A stretch of DNA of 64,000 nt, from the NCBI RefSeq assembly GCF_022846255.1, contig NZ_AP025682.1. The stretch is one strand, 5' to 3'. The translations under genes were made by a program, and so were the position numbers. Positions 10,429 to 61,097 of the stretch are shown here, one piece after another; the first letter of the stretch is position 1; each line of letters opens with the position of its first letter. The notes beneath the pieces are model-generated. The model was not told where the DNA came from. It saw only the letters and a list, made by a program, of their open reading frames with translations, and searched no databases. The DNA comes from Escherichia coli. GTDB lineage: Bacteria > Pseudomonadota > Gammaproteobacteria > Enterobacterales > Enterobacteriaceae.

Positions 10429-11730
10429 TTATTTTAATGGACTAATATCACTATTATTATCGCTATCTGTGATTTTTTCCCCATTCACGGAGATCATTCC
10501 CTGGATATATGAATCCCATAGATGTACGTCACCTTTATGAAAAATAATGCATGACATTGCGATTTTTTGTACTTTATATATCTGTTTATAGTATTCTTCT
10601 GAGTTTAATGGTGTATCTTTCAAGCTTTCATTCCTTGCTGGAAGAATCTTGACGGGACAGATAAAATCTGTATCCCCGAGTGAAAAGACATTAACTCCGG
10701 TTATAAAAAAGATACCCGGAATGTCTTGATGCAATCTCGTATTCCAGACTTGAGGATTAAACAGTTTATATGAATATTTATTTACATCTATATAATATTG
10801 ATGAGGACGCCAATCACTGATACCCGACATACTCATCGTCATATTGATAATTATATCAGGAATAGGTTTGAATAATACACTTAGAATGAACAATATGGCA
10901 GGAGGGAGTATTGCGATAGATAGCAAAGAGTTCAACCCTTCTTCTTGTTTTTCTTCTTGCTCATTTATCACTATCACACCTGGCAACATTCCTAAAAAGA
11001 TAAAAGCTAATGCAATGCAAGAAAATGATAGAAACTGTGATAAGATATCTGCACTCTCTTCAAGTCTGATCTTATTTGTCAAAAATAGCAGGGGGATAAT
11101 CTGAACAAGCCCGGGTAGAATTAAACATAAAGGAAGAGTGTATCTTATCCTGTTCCTGGGACGATATTGTTCGTGATTCTCGTGATTCTCGTGATTCTCG
11201 TGATTCTCGTGATTCTCGTGATTCTCAATGTTCTGTTCCCGAGGGGTATTTTTAGTGAATATTAATTTTTCTGAGAGGAAATATGAGACGAAATAATTAA
11301 ATAATACTATTAGTATTACTTCTGATATGGATGGATATAGAGTATTTTCTTCTGAAAAGGTAGACAGAACTGACTTTAGCACTAATGAAAAATAGAAAAC
11401 AACACTGTTCATATAGCAAATTATAGCAATTCTGTGCGCGATTCCTTTGTGATTTTTATAATAGTCTTTATGCCATGTATATGTATACACCAATACATGA
11501 GAAGATATAAAAATCAGTGAGGTTAGAGCCATTAGAGATAAAAGGATAAATATAAAGATAACACTTAAATAAAACTTTATGTCTATTGAGTCGAAAAACA
11601 AATCAAGTCTACCGAGTCCTTGCAGATAGAACCATATTGCAGATATGGCGCATCCTGTACTAAATACAGAAGACGTTAACATGGCGAGAAAAGCTTTATT
11701 ATTTAAATGTGAAAAGATAGATCTATTCAT
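10429..11730 (-). CDS. hypothetical multi-pass membrane protein with internal (ENH)6 repeat and ~130-aa C-terminal soluble domain
   Basis: ~433-aa ORF (ATG 11730; track start GTG 11739); ~7-8 hydrophobic helices; His-rich loop NIENHENHENHENHENHENHEQ encoded by a 9-bp tandem repeat; AT-rich codon usage. Confidence 0.55.
   Translation of the reverse strand: MNRSIFSHLNNKAFLAMLTSSVFSTGCAISAIWFYLQGLGRLDLFFDSIDIKFYLSVIFIFILLSLMALTSLIFISSHVLVYTYTWHKDYYKNHKGIAHRIAIICYMNSVVFYFSLVLKSVLSTFSEENTLYPSISEVILIVLFNYFVSYFLSEKLIFTKNTPREQNIENHENHENHENHENHENHEQYRPRNRIRYTLPLCLILPGLVQIIPLLFLTNKIRLEESADILSQFLSFSCIALAFIFLGMLPGVIVINEQEEKQEEGLNSLLSIAILPPAILFILSVLFKPIPDIIINMTMSMSGISDWRPHQYYIDVNKYSYKLFNPQVWNTRLHQDIPGIFFITGVNVFSLGDTDFICPVKILPARNESLKDTPLNSEEYYKQIYKVQKIAMSCIIFHKGDVHLWDSYIQGMISVNGEKITDSDNNSDISPLK
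11171..11226. repeat. 9-bp tandem repeat (TCGTGATTC)x6 inside the membrane-protein CDS
   Basis: Six perfect tandem copies seen directly; unit is 3 codons, so copy-number change is frame-preserving. Confidence 0.9.
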
Positions 11731-11945
11731 TATAAGCACATCATATTCTGTTGAGTATATGTCGATTTTATAATGTCATGTTCATGCAGATAATATCATA
11801 AGTAACATTAGTTGAACAAGAACAGAGTTGTAACAGATAAAGATCTCGTTGTTAGTTACATGATCTGATAAATGTTAGCATGAAATAGTAACTATATGAA
11901 GGATATAAGAACCTGTATCATAATGTCATATGCGTTATATCTGAT

Positions 11946-40984: not shown

Positions 40985-42097
40985 ATGAAAAAAATTACAG
41001 TGGCACTTTCTGTGGTTGCGGCATCTGTTCTGATGGCAATGTCTGCACAAGCGGCAGAAATCTATAACAAAGACGGTAACAAACTGGATCTGTACGGCAA
41101 AGTTAATGCAGAGCATTACTTCTCTTCTTCAGCTAGTGATGACGGGGATAAAACTTATGCTCGTATGGGTTTCAAAGGTGAAACTCAGATTAATGACCAG
41201 TTAACCGGTTTTGGTCAGTGGGAGTACGAATTTAAAGGTAACCGTACTGAAACTGAAGGTTCTGATAAAGATAAAACTCGTCTTGCGTTTGCAGGGCTTC
41301 GCTTTGGCGATTATGGTTCGCTCGACTATGGTCGCAACTACGGTGTAGCTTATGATGTTGGCGCTTGGACTGACGTGCTGCCGGAGTTTGGTGGAGATAC
41401 CTGGACTCAGACTGATGTATTTATGACCCAGCGTGCTACTGGCGTAGCGACCTATCGTAACAATGATTTCTTCGGCTTGGTTGATGGTCTGAACTTTGCT
41501 TTGCAGTATCAAGGTAAAAATGATAGTGCTGCAAAAGTGAATAACTGGAAAGGCCGTGACGAAGTTGAATCTAATGGTGATGGCTTTGGTCTGTCAGCTA
41601 CTTACGATTATGAGGGATTTGGCGTTGCTGCAACCTATGCAAAATCTGACCGTACTGATGGGCAGGTATCCTATGCTAAAGACAGCCCTCTGAATGCCTC
41701 TGGTAAAACTGCTGAAGTATGGGCTACGGGCCTGAAATATGATGCAAACAACATTTACCTGGCTGCAACTTATTCTGAAACTCAGAATATGACAGTCTTC
41801 GGTGATGACCATATCGCAAACAAAGCGAAAAACTTTGAAGCTGTTGCTCAATACCAGTTTGATTTCGGCTTGCGTCCGTCCATCGCTTACCTACACTCTC
41901 GCGGTGAAAATATTGGTGCGTTCGGTAACCAGGATCTAGTTGAATACATCGACGTAGGTGCGACTTATTACTTCAACAAAAATATGTCCGCTTTCGTTGA
42001 CTACAAGATCAACCTGATTGATGAAAGTGAATTTACCAAAGCATCTGAGGTTGCAACCGACAACATCGTTGCTGTTGGTATGACCTACCAATTCTAA
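40985..42097 (+). CDS. nmpC: general porin, OmpC/OmpF family (NmpC/Lc-like)
   Basis: 370-aa ORF; signal peptide [23 protein letters not shown]; mature N-terminus [17 protein letters not shown] and C-terminal ...YQF typical of enterobacterial 16-strand porins; closest recalled match NmpC/Lc. Confidence 0.85.
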
Positions 42098-42350: not shown

Positions 42351-43205
42351 CTAAGCGAGATTATGGTTTTCAAATTGTTCCGGGCTGAGACCGCCACAGG
42401 CACTGTGACGACGCCAGCGATTGTAATCACACTCGATATAATTAAACACCGTTGCCCGCATTATTTCCCGGCTGCTAAAGCGTTCCCCGTGGATACATTC
42501 CACCTTCAGCGAATGAAAGAAGCTTTCCACACAGGCATTGTCATAACAGTAGCCTTTCGCACTCATACTGCCACGCAGGTTGTGTCGCTTCAGCAGCGCC
42601 TGATAATCCCCTGAACAGTATTGACCACCACGGTCCGTATGAACAATGACGCTTTCCGGGCGTCTTCTCCGCCACAACGCCATTTGCAGTGCATCACAGG
42701 CCAGTTGTGCTGTCATTCGCGGTGACATCGACCAGCCAATGACGGCGCGTGACCACAGGTCGATGACTACTGCGAGATACAACCAGCCCTCATCGGTACG
42801 CAAGTACGTGATGTCACCCGCCCACTTCTGGTTCGGGCCACTGGCGCTGAAGTCCTGCTCCAGCAGATTCTCCAATACGGGCAGACCATGTGCACGGTAG
42901 CTGACCGGGCTGAACTTCCGGCTGGCTTTCGCCCGCAGCCCCTGACGACGCAGGCTGGCGGCAATGGTTTTAATATTGAACTCCGGCAGTTCGTCAGCAA
43001 GGCGGGGATCACCGTATCGCTGCTTTGCCTCAAAGAATGCCTTATGGACAGCGGCATCGCAGGTGAGCCGAAACTGTTGGCGCAGGCTCATCTGGTGACG
43101 ACGCCTGAGCCAGACATACCAGCCGCTGCGGGCAACCCGAAGTACACGACACATCGCTTTGATGCTGAACTCTGCCCGATGATTTTCGATGAAGACATAC
43201 TTCAT
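42351..43205 (-). CDS. IS3 transposase OrfB
   Basis: 284-aa DDE ORF ([26 protein letters not shown]...). Confidence 0.9.
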
Positions 43206-43501
43206 TTCAGGCGCTTCGCGAAGTATGTCGCGGCCTTTTGGAGGATGGCCAGTTCCTCAGCCTGCTCCGCCAGTTGTCGTTTAAGGCGGACATTTTCAGC
43301 GGCCAGTTCGCTTTCGCGCTCTGACGAACTCATTTGTTGCTGCTGTTTACTGCGCCAGGCATAAAGCTGAGATTCATACAGGCTGAGTTCACGGGCTGCG
43401 GCGGCCACACCGATGCGTTCAGCGAGTTTCAGGGCTTCGTTACGAAATTCAGGCGTATGTTGTTTACGGGGTTTCTTGCTGATTGATACTGGTTTTGTCA
43501 T
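43202..43501 (-). CDS. IS3 transposase OrfA
   Basis: 99-aa HTH OrfA; overlaps orfB (ATGA) for -1 frameshifting. Confidence 0.9.
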
Positions 43502-43833
43502 GAGTCACCTCTGGTTGAGAGTTTACTCACTTAGTCCTGTGTCCACTATTGGTGGGTAAGGTCACGGCGGGGTTAGGTGCGTGCGCTGAACAAAATGACG
43601 AAGGTAGGAATGCCAGAAAGCGTGCGTATTGCCTGACGGTAGCAACCAGCTGAAGGGATGCTTATCCCCAAACCTGATTTATTCAACAAAGCCGCTATAG
43701 CCTTACCGGAACAATCACCACCTCCCCTGGAGGTGGTCAAGAATACAGCTCTGGCGAGCCGCATACCTTTAATTACCTGCTCTGATTAGATAAATCAGAT
43801 GCAGGTACATAAGTATGCCAGCATTATATGCAA

Positions 43834-45024
43834 TTAACGTTTCCGTCCTGGAAATACAAATAGTGCAATAACGGGAGATATTACCATCAGAACAAAAACA
43901 TAGGTAAATCCAAGTGTAAATCCGCCTGTTAGATCGACCGACCAGCCAATTAACTGACTGTTTATCGTTGCCAAAATAAATGTACAAACCCAGAAGGTGG
44001 ACATTGAATAAGTAACAGTTTGAGTATTCGCATTTTTTTGTTCTTCTTTTGGAATGGAGAAGATGAATGCAAACCAGGTGGCAAAAATAGAACCCGTCAA
44101 AAACGAACAAACCAATATAACGATATCATTAGTGGCAAATAACATTGCAAAGGTTGTAATAGCCATAAAGATACTGGAAATAAATAGCCATGATTTATAA
44201 TTATACCCACGGTTTTTAAAGTACGGCCCCATCAATGCACCAAGTAAAATCCCCACCTGATTGACTGTGCCACTCAAGTGAGCACAGGAGTCAGGGGGAA
44301 GATTAGCATATTTTGCATAGTACAGAGGCAGAAATGTGAACATAAAAATCATCATGATCATTGCCCCAGCATACTGAATAATCATTCCCCAGACAATACG
44401 ATTAAACAATACATCCTTTAATACAGATATTCGCTGTTCATAACTTATAGATATATGGCTATTCTGTTGTTGCTCTTCATCCGTGAAACATATTATCCAG
44501 ACAACCCCCAATATTAACGTAATTATTCCATAGATAGCTAACAGATTACGCCACCCGTTGAACAGCAGTGATAAATAACCTGCCAATGTCAATGCAATAA
44601 TTGTACCGATAATATTTGAAGTGCAATTTATACTATTTAATGTTGACGCCATTTTGTTATCGAAAAAGCGAGCAACCGTGGGCACCAGTGATACAAGGCA
44701 AATAGCCCCCCCCAGCCCACCAAGAAAACGAATAATCAATAACAAAGTAAAGTTATTAATAAATGGAATGAGCAAGGAGCTCCCAATCATTATACATCCA
44801 AGAAAATAGGATTTTCGGGTGCCGAGCCGGGAAACAAAGACTGCAGTACAAACAGCTCCCACAATTTTAGCCCATAAAATTACATTTGACATCAATGCAG
44901 CATGTGATACATCAACATTAAAATCACTCATAATTTGTGGCATTACGGCCCCTGTCGTAGCCCAGGCGGCACCAAATACCATATAAACGGTGTAAAGAAT
45001 GAATTCAATGACCCATTTTTTCAT
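43834..45024 (-). CDS. MFS transporter
   Basis: 396-aa 12-TM ORF; SD GAGG; 4-nt overlap with upstream peptidase gene. Confidence 0.8.
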   Translation of the reverse strand: MKKWVIEFILYTVYMVFGAAWATTGAVMPQIMSDFNVDVSHAALMSNVILWAKIVGAVCTAVFVSRLGTRKSYFLGCIMIGSSLLIPFINNFTLLLIIRFLGGLGGAICLVSLVPTVARFFDNKMASTLNSINCTSNIIGTIIALTLAGYLSLLFNGWRNLLAIYGIITLILGVVWIICFTDEEQQQNSHISISYEQRISVLKDVLFNRIVWGMIIQYAGAMIMMIFMFTFLPLYYAKYANLPPDSCAHLSGTVNQVGILLGALMGPYFKNRGYNYKSWLFISSIFMAITTFAMLFATNDIVILVCSFLTGSIFATWFAFIFSIPKEEQKNANTQTVTYSMSTFWVCTFILATINSQLIGWSVDLTGGFTLGFTYVFVLMVISPVIALFVFPGRKR

Positions 45025-46274
45025 TTTTGTACCTCAGGGACACTTAGCTCAACCATTTCCAGCAGCATTTCACTGGCAAGACGCAGGGATTCCACAGGCA
45101 AAAACTCTCTGGTTGAGTGAAAATTGTGCGCCCCTGTAAATATATTAATAGTAGGCAGCCCTTTTGGGGTGATGACGCTACCATCATAACCACCGCGCAT
45201 AATCAGTGGTTTTGGTGTAATGCCAAGGTTACGCATTGCCTGTCTAACGTTATCTAAGATTGCAGGTGTTTTATCAAGCGCTGGTTTGACATTTTCATAT
45301 ATATCGGTTAACACTAATGTTATTCTTTCACTCTTCCAGCGCTGATTAATACTCTTAACAATGTTCTCGAGTACGGCTTTACGTTGTTTATATCCTGTTA
45401 ACTCAAAGTCCCGAATAGCAATATCAAGCGTGGCGCTGGCTGTATCACCATGGAGATTATGGACCCAATAATATCCTTCCCGTTTTTCAGTATGCTCAGG
45501 CCTTTCTTTTTCAGGTAATGCGGCGATAATTTCCGTTGCTATACACAACGCATTAACAAGCTTACCTTTAGCACTCATTGGATGTGCTGTAACACCACGA
45601 ACTGTAATTCGTGCACTACCTGCATACCAGTTTTCAACAACATATTCTCCAATCTCACAACAGTCGAGACAGATACCAAAATCAGAATTCAGTTCACCAA
45701 CATCAAGCGCTTTTGCCCCTCTGATACCGGTCTCCTCATCAGGCAAAAGAACAAGACGAATATCACCATGAGAAAAGGAGGGTGTATTAATCATATATTT
45801 GAGAGCTTCAACACCTGCTGCAATGGCAGCTTTGTCGTCAGCCCCCAGCAAGCTGGTGCCATCAGTTACAATAATATCCTGACCGATATAGTTGAGTAGT
45901 TCTGGATTATCCTGTGGGGATAGTTTTTCCACACTCCCTGCAAACGGTATAGCACCTCCGTTATACTTTTTCACTCGGAAAGCATGTGTATCTGTACTGT
46001 GGTCCGGAGCTGTATCAAGGTGTGCAAAGAATACGATAGAAGGTGCATCAGGAATATTAGCGGGTAAATGAATTGTGGCAATAGCATTTTCTTTTATGCT
46101 TGTTTGTACCTCTGGAACATCAGAAAATTGACTTACAACATATTCTGCCAGTTTATATTGATTTTTACAGCTTGGAAGCTCCTTGCTACCATCAACCGAT
46201 GTCGTATTTATTTTTGTGTAATATAAAAAAGTCTCAATTATTTTCTCTAAGTCAATGCGTTTTTTCATGATCAT
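45021..46274 (-). CDS. peptidase T-like M20-family metallopeptidase (tripeptidase-like)
   Basis: 417-aa ORF; M20 metal-ligand motifs (HLDTAP; GADDKAAIAAGVEAL; HGDIRLVLLPDEETGIRGA). Confidence 0.8.
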   Translation of the reverse strand: MIMKKRIDLEKIIETFLYYTKINTTSVDGSKELPSCKNQYKLAEYVVSQFSDVPEVQTSIKENAIATIHLPANIPDAPSIVFFAHLDTAPDHSTDTHAFRVKKYNGGAIPFAGSVEKLSPQDNPELLNYIGQDIIVTDGTSLLGADDKAAIAAGVEALKYMINTPSFSHGDIRLVLLPDEETGIRGAKALDVGELNSDFGICLDCCEIGEYVVENWYAGSARITVRGVTAHPMSAKGKLVNALCIATEIIAALPEKERPEHTEKREGYYWVHNLHGDTASATLDIAIRDFELTGYKQRKAVLENIVKSINQRWKSERITLVLTDIYENVKPALDKTPAILDNVRQAMRNLGITPKPLIMRGGYDGSVITPKGLPTINIFTGAHNFHSTREFLPVESLRLASEMLLEMVELSVPEVQK

Positions 46275-46294
46275 ATACCTAATTGTTTACTATC

Positions 46295-46329
46295 AATATC
46301 CTGACTATCTATATTTAGATAATATCCTG
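46295..46329. promoter_or_regulatory. two direct repeats AATATCCTG spaced 26 bp, just upstream of the peptidase start
   Basis: Seen directly at 46295-46303 and 46321-46329; a GTCAGTTCCTGAC palindrome lies ~60 bp further upstream. Confidence 0.3.
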
Positions 46330-46479
46330 CAAAAATTAGTGAGTATAGAAAAGGTCGTCAGTTCCTGACTGGTAAATGTCCCTTCGAGATTTATTAGAGT
46401 CATAATTTGCCTCATCCCAATACAAAAAACAATACGAAAGTATGAAAAAGTGTAGTGATCAACAAAATATTGCCACGTT

Positions 46480-47191: not shown

Positions 47192-48643
47192 CTATTTGCT
47201 TTCATTTATGGTTTCCATCATGAGCTGTTGCTGCTTTTCTTTGGACAGTCGAGCGATACCAAAGCCTGTGAACCCCCACAGCGTCGCAAAGAAAATGCCA
47301 CTCCAGCAGAGAATAGCCCACGGAAGATAGCTTAATGTAGCAACGCCAAGTGTACCTGCCATGTAGGCACCCGCGGCAGTCCAGGGCAGAATTGGTTCAA
47401 ATATGGTGGCAGAGTCTTCTACAGTCCTTGCCAGATTTTTTGGATGTAGGCCGCGCTCAATATAAGCACTTCGTAGCATTTCAATCGGAATCAGGATTGA
47501 TATCTGACCATTACAGGTCACGCTAATCATTGTTAAACCACAGGCAATAGTCGCAAGAATCATGGTTCCTGTGGAATGAACTAATTTGAGCAGATTATGG
47601 ACGATGACTTCTAAAGCGCCGCTCAAGGCTAATGTTCCTGCAAATGAAAGGGCGCAGAAACAAATAAGCAACGTACTCATCATCGAGTTCATGCCACCGC
47701 GGTTTAACAAATTACCTAATAGCGGATTAACATCTTTATCGGTAAGCATTGAAACGTTAAATCCGTCTACTGCACTTTTAACAATGTCGTGTAGTGCGAA
47801 CCCCTGAATAACGCTGGCGTTGATCATGGCTACCAGTGCCGAAACAAGCATAATTGGAATGGTTGGTTTCTTGGTAATCGAACCGTACAGGACAATGGCA
47901 ATGGGTAGCAATAACAATAAATTAAAATGATAAATTCCTTTTAATCCTTCAGTGATTAGCTGAATTTTTTCGGGAATGGTTGAGCCGCCGAGCTCGCCAT
48001 TCATCCCATAGAGCGTCATAACAAAGGCTGACAGTATCAATGAAGGAAGGGTTGTATAAAGTAAATGAGCGATGTGTTCATAGAGATCTATCTGGGCTGC
48101 CATTGCGGCTAAGTTAGTATCACCAGAAAGGGGAGACAGTTTGTCCCCGAAGTAAGCCCCTGCCACAATAGCGCCTGCAGTTGCTGCCAGATTAGCCTCC
48201 ATTCCGATAGCCACACCCATAAACGCAACACCGACGGTGCCTGCGGATCCCCAGGATGTCCCTGTGCATACAGAAACGACGGCAGTAACGAGCAGGGCCG
48301 TCACATAGATCATGGAAGGATTTATCAGAATAAGGCCGTAATAAATCATCAGCGGAATAGTACCGCCTATCATCCATGTCCCAATCAGGAGGCCCACGCT
48401 GATCAAAATTAGCAGAGCAGGCATTGTTTTAGCGATTTTCTGCGATATTGATTCAAGGATTGCATTGTAGCCATACCCCAACCGCTTAACTAACAGTGCA
48501 GCAATGACGGTTGAAAGAACCATTAATGGCTCAGGTGGCAGATCGAATGCCGCATAACCAAATCCCAGCAATAGTATCATCGCTAGTATTGGTAATAATG
48601 ATTCCACCAGAGTTGGGGATCTTGGAGTATTGTTATTATTCAT
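47192..48643 (-). CDS. NhaC-family transporter
   Basis: ~484-aa polytopic ORF (ATG 48643, SD AGGAG inside the upstream gene's 3' end); NhaC-type pattern. Confidence 0.75.
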   Translation of the reverse strand: MNNNNTPRSPTLVESLLPILAMILLLGFGYAAFDLPPEPLMVLSTVIAALLVKRLGYGYNAILESISQKIAKTMPALLILISVGLLIGTWMIGGTIPLMIYYGLILINPSMIYVTALLVTAVVSVCTGTSWGSAGTVGVAFMGVAIGMEANLAATAGAIVAGAYFGDKLSPLSGDTNLAAMAAQIDLYEHIAHLLYTTLPSLILSAFVMTLYGMNGELGGSTIPEKIQLITEGLKGIYHFNLLLLLPIAIVLYGSITKKPTIPIMLVSALVAMINASVIQGFALHDIVKSAVDGFNVSMLTDKDVNPLLGNLLNRGGMNSMMSTLLICFCALSFAGTLALSGALEVIVHNLLKLVHSTGTMILATIACGLTMISVTCNGQISILIPIEMLRSAYIERGLHPKNLARTVEDSATIFEPILPWTAAGAYMAGTLGVATLSYLPWAILCWSGIFFATLWGFTGFGIARLSKEKQQQLMMETINESK

Positions 48644-49814
48644 GAAGGGAAACTCCTGTAGTGAAGGGGATGCTCTGATAAATCCGTTCAAATGCTTGTG
48701 TAAGATTGCTTCTCGGCGTGGCTATGTTCACACGGAAAAAACCAAGTCCTTCATCGCCAAAATCTGATCCCCAGCTCATCTCAACACCTGCGAGCGAGAC
48801 AAACCAATGGCGTAGTTGCTCTTCGCTGATGTTCATTGCCCGGTAGTCGATCCACAACATGTAAGTTCCGCCACCAGAGGCGACAAACCAGTCTGGAAAA
48901 TGAGCTTGGCAGAATGATTGAACCCAGCTCCTGTTTTCGACCAAATAATCTTTTAATGCTGCTAACCAAGAATCGCCATGGCGGTAAGCACAGAGAAATG
49001 CAGGAACAGAGAAATAACCAGGATTATGGATACCTGCTGCAATAAGAGCTAATTTAAACTGTTCACGATATTTATCGTTAGCAATAACAATATTTGCGAT
49101 TTCAAGTCCGGCCATATTAAAAGTTTTTGCTGGAGATGTACAAATAAACGAGTTTTGTGCAACGTATGAGCTTATAGAAGAAATTGTTTGATGTTGTTTT
49201 TGGGTGAAGTTGAAGTCTGCATGAACATCATCAGAAATAATAAAAATATTATATTTTTCTGCTAATGAAGCTATTTTCCTTAGATTGTCTTCTGACCAGA
49301 TTGTTCCTGTTGGATTATGCGGCGATATTAGAATGAAACAACAAGCCATTTTAAACTTATCTTCGAGATCCGCAAAGTCTATTTCATAGTGGTGGTCACG
49401 ATAAAGTAACGCACTTTCCAGCAATACTCGATGGTTGACTTCAACTGCATGACTAATAGGATGATAGGCTGGTGTCAGGCTGACAATAGCATCTCCCGGT
49501 TGGGTAAAGTTCTGGATAAATAATGAGACGGCCTGTACTACCCGTGGGCAAAAAACAATGTGTTCAGGGTTGACCTTCCACGAGTAATGGCGTTGATACC
49601 ACTGTGCTGCCACTTGCTGCCAGTCATCACTTAATAATGTATAACCGTAGATACCTTTCTGATTTGCGACAGATAATTCAGAAACTATAAAATCAGCTAC
49701 AGGAATATCCATATCAGCTACAGACAGGGGAATGATGTCACGCCCCTTGTTATTATATTTAGCGCTATAGGTTCCGTCGCGTGAAATAACTTTATCAAAA
49801 TTATAAACTTTCAT
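48636..49814 (-). CDS. PLP-dependent C-S lyase (MalY/PatB cystathionine beta-lyase family)
   Basis: ~392-aa ORF from ATG 49814 (MKVYNFDKVISRDGTYSAKY...); aminotransferase class I/II fold pattern; 2-nt gap to NhaC start. Confidence 0.8.
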   Translation of the reverse strand: MKVYNFDKVISRDGTYSAKYNNKGRDIIPLSVADMDIPVADFIVSELSVANQKGIYGYTLLSDDWQQVAAQWYQRHYSWKVNPEHIVFCPRVVQAVSLFIQNFTQPGDAIVSLTPAYHPISHAVEVNHRVLLESALLYRDHHYEIDFADLEDKFKMACCFILISPHNPTGTIWSEDNLRKIASLAEKYNIFIISDDVHADFNFTQKQHQTISSISSYVAQNSFICTSPAKTFNMAGLEIANIVIANDKYREQFKLALIAAGIHNPGYFSVPAFLCAYRHGDSWLAALKDYLVENRSWVQSFCQAHFPDWFVASGGGTYMLWIDYRAMNISEEQLRHWFVSLAGVEMSWGSDFGDEGLGFFRVNIATPRSNLTQAFERIYQSIPFTTGVSLHE

Positions 49815-49913
49815 ATTTGTTACTCGCCCGGTTTTATCGTTAGGGTAATGTAATATTTCGAGGGAGGAAGTGTTATTCTGTATTTTGTTTTCGTTATTAT
49901 GAAAATTTGCATA

Positions 49914-49929
49914 TGTGATGTTTATCACA
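49914..49929. promoter_or_regulatory. consensus CRP site TGTGA-N6-TCACA
   Basis: TGTGATGTTTATCACA seen directly, ~100 bp upstream of the C-S lyase start on the minus strand (class I position). Confidence 0.5.
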
Positions 49930-59561: not shown

Positions 59562-60824
59562 TTATTTTAATGGATTATTAATCTTTGCATATTCAAATGG
59601 ACTGATAAATCTTTCTCTATTTGCATCCAGAAAATCGGCCCACCATTGTAGCATCAGTCGACGTTCTTCCAGATGTTCTGCTTTATGAATGTAAGCAGCA
59701 CGTACACCATTACGCTCCTGATGGCTCATCTGACGTTCCACAGCATCGCGGGACCACAAACCTGATTCAATCAATGCACTGCACGCCATCGCCCGGAATC
59801 CATGGCCACAGACTTCCTGGGTTGTGTCATATCCCATAACCCTCAGGGCTTTATTTACGGTATTTTCGCTGATTGGTTTACGTGGGTCATGTGCCCCCGT
59901 AAAGATCAGACCATTTTCACCAGCCCATGTCTGAAGTTCTGTCAGTATGGCTACAGCCTGTTTGCTGAGTGGCACAAGATGTGGTGTTCGCATCTTGGAG
60001 CCTCGGTGTGAGAATTTTACGCCTGGCAGAGGTTCGCGTTCGGCTGGAATAGTCCACATGGCATTGTCAATATCAATTTCAGACCAGCGGGCATATCTGA
60101 GTTCACTGGAACGAATAAAAACCAGTAAATTCAGCATAACTGCCCGTCGGGTGACAGGCTGGCCTTTATAACCGCCAATACGCGACAGAAGTTCAGGCAG
60201 ACGTGAAAGATCCAGAGCTGGGCGATGCTGGCGTTTTACCGTAGTCAATGCACCAGCCATATCCAGAGCCGGGTTATATCTGATGATGCCAGACTGTACG
60301 GCATAACGCATTACAGCAGATATTCTTTGCTGCAGACGACTGGCGATTTCATAAATTTGTTTAGCTTCTGCAGCACGAACAGGGATAAGCAGGTCCGGGG
60401 TACTGAGTGTTGTGATATCCCGGTTGCCGATAAAGGGGAATACGTGTGTCTCGAGGCTTTTGAGTACTTTATCGCTGTGTGATTGTGCCCATTGTTTATT
60501 ACTGGCATGCCAGCGTCGTGCAATATGTTCAAAAGAGAGCTGTAAATCAGGGACTACTTTTTTAGCTCTTTTCTGTTCGCAAGGGTCAATCCCCTCCGAA
60601 ATCAGTTTTCGGGCCTCATCCCGTTTTGTACGAGCTTCGGAGAGAGAAACTTCTGGATACACACCAAGTGCCAGAGTCTTCTCCTTACCCAGAATACGAT
60701 AACGGAGACGCCAGTAACGGGAACCATTAGGATGAACCAGCAGGAACATGCCGGCCCCGTCAGTGAGTTTATAAGCCTTGTCAGTGGGCTTTGCAGCCCG
60801 GATTTTTGCGTCAGTCAGCGCCAT
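59562..60824 (-). CDS. int: P4-type tyrosine integrase adjacent to tRNA-Phe
   Basis: 420-aa ORF; SD AAGG; P4-family N-terminus (MALTDAKIRAAKPTDKAYKLTDGAGMFLLVHPNGSRYWRLRY) and C-terminal catalytic region; tRNA upstream on the same strand. Confidence 0.9.
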   Translation of the reverse strand: MALTDAKIRAAKPTDKAYKLTDGAGMFLLVHPNGSRYWRLRYRILGKEKTLALGVYPEVSLSEARTKRDEARKLISEGIDPCEQKRAKKVVPDLQLSFEHIARRWHASNKQWAQSHSDKVLKSLETHVFPFIGNRDITTLSTPDLLIPVRAAEAKQIYEIASRLQQRISAVMRYAVQSGIIRYNPALDMAGALTTVKRQHRPALDLSRLPELLSRIGGYKGQPVTRRAVMLNLLVFIRSSELRYARWSEIDIDNAMWTIPAEREPLPGVKFSHRGSKMRTPHLVPLSKQAVAILTELQTWAGENGLIFTGAHDPRKPISENTVNKALRVMGYDTTQEVCGHGFRAMACSALIESGLWSRDAVERQMSHQERNGVRAAYIHKAEHLEERRLMLQWWADFLDANRERFISPFEYAKINNPLK

Positions 60825-61021: not shown

Positions 61022-61097
61022 TGGTGCCCGGACTCGGAATCGAACCAAGGACACGGGGATTTTCAATCCCCTGCTCTACCGACTGAGCTATCCGGGC
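61022..61097 (-). tRNA. pheV: tRNA-Phe (anticodon GAA)
   Basis: Reverse complement reads GCCCGGATAGCTCAGTCGGTAGAGCAGGGGATTGAAAATCCCCGTGTCCTTGGTTCGATTCCGAGTCCGGGCACCA, the E. coli tRNA-Phe sequence incl. CCA; pheV copy inferred from flanking yqgA-speC. Confidence 0.95.

Follow-up and report, generated by a model that had tools for sequence, protein, structure and literature searches.

The window analyzed here is a stretch of 64,000 nucleotides (nt) of Escherichia coli DNA (assembly GCF_022846255.1, contig NZ_AP025682.1), within which a predicted peptidase and a predicted major facilitator superfamily (MFS) transporter are encoded side by side on the minus strand. The upstream gene (45021..46268) specifies a PepT-like M20B metallopeptidase of 415 amino acids, and the downstream gene (43834..45024) an MFS transporter of 396 amino acids with 12 transmembrane helices. 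The stop codon of the first and the start codon of the second share 4 nt, an ATGA at 45021..45024 on the minus strand that is read directly from the sequence. Both this overlap and the identities of the two products had been given in an earlier note on this DNA; the overlap is present as described, and the identities are confirmed by Pfam and NCBIfam profile matches, with RefSeq already labeling the products “peptidase T” and “MFS transporter”. A GAGG Shine-Dalgarno motif for the MFS gene (45032..45035, minus) was found by sequence reading 7 nt 5' of the ATG, still within the peptidase gene at its 3' end. The peptidase gene has an AGGT motif (46277..46280, minus), found in the same way, which is kept in an allele carried by E. 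coli plasmids (locus L002) and in a 97%-identical relative (L020). The list of open reading frames gives the MFS frame as 43834-45024(-) and the peptidase frame as 45021-46274(-), the latter opening at an in-frame alternative ATG (46274) that adds 2 residues; ATG 46268 is the likely start, because the AGGT motif lies 8 nt upstream of it and because PGAP/RefSeq and all orthologues use the 415-residue form.

The peptidase scores best against the NCBIfam model NF009920/PRK13381 (455.6 bits, cut-off 293), followed by NF003976 (431.1 bits, cut-off 255) and by the model for peptidase T itself, TIGR01882 (EC 3.4.11.4; 318.8 bits, cut-off 285.75). Pfam places an M20 domain (PF01546) at residues 145-409 and an M20_dimer domain (PF07687) at residues 219-313, so that the catalytic domain and the inserted dimerization (lid) domain are both present, and the protein aligns end to end with the solved PepT structures of Salmonella (1FNO) and E. 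coli (1VIX). With the di-metal ligands of Salmonella PepT (His78, Asp140, Glu174, Asp196 and His379) as reference, residues H83, D85, D144, E178, E179, D202 and H384 correspond to PepT H78, D80, D140, E173, E174, D196 and H379, and all seven sites, comprising the five metal ligands and the catalytic Asp80 and Glu173, are identical in the window enzyme and 25 aligned relatives. No hydrophobic signal-like stretch is apparent at the N-terminus (MKKRIDLEK...) on reading by eye, no predictor having been run. By every sequence criterion tested, the predicted enzyme thus belongs to the peptidase T family and is not the canonical orthologue. The identification as housekeeping pepT, which the earlier note had named as a way for its reading to fail, was rejected on 37% identity to Salmonella PepT (1FNO), on an accessory distribution (24 of 5426 complete E. 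coli genomes) and on a GC content of 38-41%.

The transporter matches Pfam MFS_1 (PF07690) at 124 bits (cut-off 33.4), whereas the PTR2/POT profile PF00854 gives no match at E<=0.001. Its AlphaFold model (pLDDT 81.8, pTM 0.78) is all-helical with the standard 12-helix MFS fold. A Foldseek search with this model returned only generic MFS folds (FLVCR, DgoT, G6PT and sialin) at TM-scores of ~0.8 and 13-17% identity, and therefore offers no clue to the substrate; no POT structure was among the listed top 50 matches, and a sequence search of the PDB with the transporter found no match. A regular-expression search found no antiporter motif C (G-x3-GP-x2-G) of transmembrane helix 5, the sole GP dipeptide lying at residue 266. 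Judged from these profiles and motifs, the transporter is an MFS protein that is neither a POT carrier nor a DHA-type exporter. NgtA, the glutathione importer of Francisella, is a Pht-family MFS protein and was considered solely as a precedent for the uptake of peptides by MFS proteins.

To follow the pair beyond the window, loci were gathered by context look-ups and by one scan of 100,044 species genomes, which gave 22 loci. Protein searches with the peptidase and with the transporter led to one and the same small group of genera, often to the very same contigs, and in every locus where the MFS protein has at least 54% identity to that of the window, a PepT-like gene lies directly upstream on the same strand. 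The coupled genera include Kluyvera, Citrobacter (C. braakii), Buttiauxella (five species), Scandinavium, Psychromonas, Vibrio (two species) and an Arcobacter metagenome-assembled genome, and the arrangement is also found on E. coli plasmids and in an Escherichia resembling E. albertii. In most coupled loci the genes are spaced by -4 nt, and in the remainder by -1, -8 or +1; the junctions of all coupled loci carry a GAGG, GGAG or AAGG motif at the equivalent site, within the peptidase gene near its end. Relative to the window proteins, both partners lose identity in step, from 100/100 down to 49/54%; two copies (L020 and L030) are decaying. The 4-nt overlap is far beyond chance, because it is seen again in the great majority of independent loci. 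Absence of the coupling from homologous loci, the other way in which the earlier note could have failed, was thus looked for, and order, strand and mostly the overlap itself were found to be kept across genera. The conserved nearby regulator for which that note had suggested searching did not emerge: no regulator, neighbor or accessory gene is conserved near the pair, and its neighbors differ in every genus compared.

Among complete E. coli genomes, nine chromosomes carry the window allele at 99.8% identity, and 15 records carry an allele at 87%; most of these are ~62-kb plasmids of human isolates, with urine as the source wherever one is recorded. Homology between the chromosomal and plasmid alleles is restricted to a module of ~2.57 kb (~43768-46333), made up of the two genes, ~65 nt upstream of them and a strong 3' hairpin, and insertion sequence (IS) elements flank this module in both settings; in the window, an ISEc16 (IS3-family) transposase gene (42351..43501, minus), assigned from the RefSeq annotation of a 99.8% identical locus, abuts the module as context outside the operon. 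The module sits ~15 kb inside an island bounded by a tRNA-Phe gene (61022-61097, minus) and a tyrosine integrase gene (59562-60824, minus), and since these two adjoin, the window represents a genomic island of the pheV/pheU type. Collinearity over the full window is seen with none of the complete E. coli genomes in the collection; in the best-matching genome, that of strain Santai, it extends over 27132-50287 only. The GC content of the pair (38-41%, with 31-36% GC at third codon positions) is unlike that of Kluyvera orthologues (~54.5%), which points to a lower-GC organism as the donor to E. coli. Between the window and plasmid alleles, the peptidase shows a dN/dS of 0.11 and the transporter one of 0.09, with dS of 0.56 and 0.55; such low dN/dS and near-identical dS indicate purifying selection on both genes and one common history. 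On these comparative grounds, the pair moves as a self-contained, horizontally mobile unit. The plasmid copy adjoins a sugar-utilization cluster consisting of a second MFS transporter, a GH32 glycoside hydrolase, a kinase, a carbohydrate porin and a LacI-family regulator.

A mosaic island of this kind, in which the locus lies between IS elements and pseudogene fragments, could bring two genes together by accident during its assembly, with no functional link between them, or could house a stray copy of the housekeeping pepT. We regard this explanation as already refuted and give it hardly any credence: gene order, strand and the 4-nt overlap are kept across more than ten genera, both genes diverge in parallel with matching dS, and the peptidase shares no more than 37% identity with canonical PepT.

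The sequence upstream of the peptidase gene contains two direct copies of AATATCCTG (46295-46303 and 46321-46329, plus), seen in the sequence, which had been pointed out previously as lying immediately upstream of the pair. The copies exist; the end coordinate given in the earlier note, 46330, is one base too far. On the gene strand the repeat reads CAGGATATT, and a TTGCAG motif (46332-46327) directly adjoins its distal copy. Mutations affect both copies in the 97%-identical relative and in the 87% plasmid allele. Close exact repeats (at least 9 nt, at most 40 nt apart) number ~16 distinct cases in the window against ~9 expected under a first-order Markov model, and ~5% of simulated local regions contain such a 9-mer repeat. 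The repeat lies within chance expectation; we do not think it means anything, it lends no support to the coupling of the genes, and a role for it as an operator was rejected on the same two counts. The Buttiauxella noackiae orthologue likewise has the sequence TTGCAGGATATTA in its upstream region.

Between the two 9-mer copies lies a 16-nt palindrome, TATCTAAATATAGATA (46304-46320, minus), which is kept in L020; in Buttiauxella orthologues a different palindrome, ATAAC-N3-GTTAT, follows a shared TTGCA motif at a comparable place. Both palindromes could be candidate operators. Control by FNR or CRP, as for canonical pepT, was considered for TTGATAGTAAACAA and rejected, because this sequence sits only ~12-25 nt 5' of the start codon, a distance too short for an activator site. 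Inspection of the upstream regions by eye found a perfect CRP-like TGTGATCAATATCACA in the Vibrio orthologue only, and no motif common to all genera was seen in this way, no formal motif scan having been run. Farther upstream, a consensus scan, which amounts to pattern matching, found a terminator-like hairpin with a T-rich tail (46357..46369, minus) that likely insulates the operon from upstream transcription. At the other end, RNA folding predicts a strong hairpin (43761..43818, minus) that closely follows the stop codon of the MFS gene and lies at the 3' edge of the conserved module (-31.1 kcal/mol, z = -5.9; none of 200 shuffles folds as well). This hairpin is kept in the plasmid allele and in L020, and homology to the plasmid stops just past it; it has no U-tract, and would presumably serve as a terminator.

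Taken together, these observations lead us to read the locus, at a probability of roughly 0.6, as a self-contained, horizontally mobile, two-gene catabolic operon, that is, a translationally coupled import-and-cleave cassette. Under this reading, one mRNA would encode first a cytoplasmic di-zinc aminopeptidase of the PepT type and then a 12-helix MFS permease, and the two would be translated together because of the start/stop overlap and the ribosome-binding site of the permease inside the peptidase gene. The permease, most likely a proton symporter, would take in a small peptide-like amide, the peptidase would cut off its N-terminal residue, and general dipeptidases would complete the breakdown to amino acids for growth. 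A tripeptide is the default and most likely substrate, since canonical PepT of E. coli and Salmonella has aminopeptidase activity on tripeptides only (PMC10394242). A dedicated import-and-cleavage function, as proposed in the earlier note, is supported by the conserved coupling and by the non-canonical peptidase; we infer co-transcription, translational coupling, the direction of transport (and with it “import” itself) and the identity of the substrate.

Several points weigh against this reading. The transporter is neither a POT/PTR2 carrier nor one with a characterized close relative, and its distant relatives pair with M20D enzymes, whose usual substrates are N-acyl amino acids and not free tripeptides, so the substrate class could differ from plain tripeptides. 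E. coli already has the Opp, Dpp and Dtp carriers as well as canonical PepT, which calls into question what the uptake of plain tripeptides would add. A sigma-70 promoter scan of the upstream region found 13 sites against 10.5 expected, none of them suitably placed, and the candidate promoter, TTGCAG-17-GATAGT, matches the consensus at 7 of 12 positions.

The wider family of the transporter bears directly on the question of substrate. It is small: out of 1.84 billion representative proteins, 31 cluster representatives (clusters formed at 50% identity) match at E<=1e-30. Wherever the family member at a locus is intact, an M20 gene accompanies it on the same strand, in most cases with a gap of -4 nt; the loci without an intact pair hold a truncated copy (L027) or the two decayed copies. 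Members at 27-49% identity to the window transporter likewise adjoin an M20 gene, often of another M20 subfamily: in Campylobacter, Helicobacter, Photobacterium and Vibrio sinensis, the partner is an M20D amidohydrolase of the aminoacylase/hippuricase type (TIGR01891). Of two further distant representatives, one, from a metagenome, lies downstream of a PepT-like gene (47% identity), and the other has an overlapping M20D gene downstream. In Photobacterium proteolyticum, the neighbors of the MFS-M20D pair include a LysR regulator and dsdA-like D-serine ammonia-lyase genes, one or two in number (L023 and L029), one of these loci (L023) having a GntP-family permease in addition, and in V. sinensis (L024) it stands with a CdaR-type regulator and a glycerate kinase gene. 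These settings hint at a serine-containing amide as substrate. We offer, as a proposal somewhat short of an even bet, that the window transporter represents a small unrecognized subfamily of MFS proteins that are obligate genomic partners of PepT- or HipO-type M20 metallohydrolases and give Proteobacteria and Campylobacterota a non-POT, non-ABC route by which tripeptides or N-acyl amino acids are taken up, with the E. coli copy as a mobile nutritional fitness cassette that spreads on islands and plasmids.

The same contexts feed the main rival explanation, in which the pair imports and cleaves a specialized, non-standard amide (an N-blocked, D-residue-containing or modified small peptide, or an N-acyl amino acid) by means of a PepT-like enzyme with shifted specificity. 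The M20D partners of distant family members and the D-serine, GntP, LysR and glycerate kinase neighbors in Photobacterium and V. sinensis speak for such a substrate, as does the best NCBIfam MFS match of the transporter, an anion:cation symporter group far below its cut-off. So does the general tripeptide uptake and PepT activity that E. coli already possesses. The biochemistry of non-canonical M20B enzymes is, moreover, largely unknown (PMC10394242). Yet the peptidase passes the peptidase T equivalog cut-off, its clade-specific invariant residues are few and conservative (S->A, F->L, Y->I and S->T) with no obvious remodeling of the pocket, and no accessory catabolic genes travel with the pair. 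We accordingly consider a specialized amide a possible but clearly less probable substrate.

It is also conceivable that the transporter works outward, the pair detoxifying a harmful peptide by cleavage and then expelling the product or the peptide, or balancing intracellular pools of peptides and amino acids. The direction of an MFS protein is not readable from its sequence, dipeptide export is known for some MFS proteins, and doubts have been raised that the AbgT family acts in import. An export or detoxification role is nonetheless less likely, and we consider it improbable: the transporter lacks the motif C typical of drug/H+ antiporters, members of its family stand in catabolic contexts (dsdA, glycerate kinase and hipO-type amidohydrolases), and the plasmid copy in E. 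coli lies beside genes for sugar utilization.

Returning to import and cleavage, the known kind to which the pair belongs is the transporter-plus-hydrolase nutrient operon, and what appears to be added is a small MFS family as the dedicated partner of M20 enzymes. Literature searches on peptidase T with MFS, hipO with Cj0986c, and hippurate hydrolase with MFS turned up no account of the pair. If the permease imports peptides or N-acyl amino acids, this would be a new substrate class for a non-POT clade of the MFS, and it would provide the hipO-type hydrolases of Campylobacter and its relatives with their missing transporter. In E. coli, where the cassette occurs in gut, urine and livestock isolates, it may add a niche nutrient. 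The pair offers a simple case of a transporter and an enzyme that co-evolve and move as one unit, and changes no major concept.

Some 0.9 kb upstream of the pair, with a psiE pseudogene fragment between, is a second transporter-plus-enzyme pair (47192-49928), in which an NhaC-family transporter gene (47192-48691, minus) overlaps a gene for a PatB/MalY-type C-S lyase (48636-49928, minus); it could be a cassette for the uptake and cleavage of cysteine conjugates or cystathionine. A functional link between the two pairs was considered and found to be unsupported, as the psiE fragment intervenes and nhaC-patB is absent from the plasmid and native contexts. Directly downstream of the MFS gene, together with ISEc16, is an extra gene for an OmpC-type porin (40985-42097, plus). 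The matching Santai locus has, further upstream, mtnK, mtnA and genes for an aldolase and a GRP sugar transporter, and in a part of the Santai island that differs from the window (L036, 20142-23789), genes for an amidohydrolase, a DcuC carrier and a LysR regulator lie between IS66 fragments. Such islands seem to collect transporter-enzyme cassettes. Elsewhere in the window, a tandem 9-bp unit, TCGTGATTC, is repeated ~5.5 times at 11171-11218 within an open reading frame (10429-11739, minus), where it encodes an (NHE)n stretch in a predicted membrane protein of 436 amino acids; the array may be variable in length.

Comparison with known systems begins with peptidase T itself (MEROPS M20.003), with which the window enzyme shares the M20B family, length, two-domain layout, the five metal ligands with the catalytic Asp and Glu, and a score above the TIGR01882 cut-off. 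It differs in that its best model is the PRK13381 subgroup, not PRK05469, in that its activity is predicted, and in that its gene is accessory, mobile and fused to a transporter gene, whereas canonical pepT is a core, standalone gene. The statement of the earlier note that peptidase T is normally standalone accordingly holds for canonical pepT but not for other PRK13381-type genes. Transporter-fused genes are not unusual in that subgroup, because other members pair with DcuC-type carriers: a widespread enterobacterial paralogue of 418 amino acids (P0227; 49% identity) overlaps the gene for a DcuC-family carrier by 4 nt (L032, 6001-8615), and a Pasteurellaceae PepT-like gene (P0225) lies beside those for a DcuC-like carrier and another M20 enzyme. 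One PepT gene of Campylobacter lacks such direct coupling. These PepT-DcuC pairs represent the closest paralogous subgroup, with the same “LDCC” segment after the Asp ligand and the same overlap, but their carrier is of the DcuC type (PF03606) and not an MFS protein, and they are likewise uncharacterized. Genes near the enterobacterial pair encode Asparaginase, DcuA_DcuB and Lyase_1 Pfam domains (ansB-, dcuA- and aspA-like), and in a Campylobacter locus (L037, 6258-8269), an S51 (PepE-like) peptidase is the partner of a DcuC-type carrier; a link to peptides may exist for DcuC-family carriers as well.

With POT/PTR2 permeases (DtpA/TppB) and PepT, the window pair shares its proposed logic, the proton-driven uptake of tripeptides followed by cytoplasmic hydrolysis. 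POT carriers take up tripeptides that PepT hydrolyzes, but POT genes are not known to be linked to pepT, and the window transporter has no PTR2 domain match. MFS-hipO operons resemble the window pair in arrangement, with an MFS gene adjoining a same-strand gene for an M20 hydrolase. In the hipO-like loci of Campylobacter and Helicobacter, the MFS proteins are true homologues of the window transporter (37% identity over the full length), and the Campylobacter M20D gene is one that we take to be hipO of the Cj0985c-Cj0987c locus. The partner in these operons differs, being an M20D amidohydrolase acting on N-acyl amino acids and not a PepT-type enzyme. In Pseudomonas putida, an MFS gene lies directly upstream of hipO (PP_2703-PP_2704; bioRxiv 10.64898/2025.12.09.693157), PP_2703 being likened to the window transporter by arrangement. 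The abgABT genes of E. coli differ from the window pair in that AbgT is not an MFS protein and in that the window pair has no conserved regulator. The abg genes have a LysR regulator, and AbgA and AbgB are M20D-type amidohydrolases, not PepT-type enzymes. The likeness lies in the plan: a dedicated secondary transporter is encoded together with M20-family hydrolases for the import and intracellular cleavage of a small amide, AbgT importing p-aminobenzoyl-glutamate that AbgAB then cleaves (PMC5082436).

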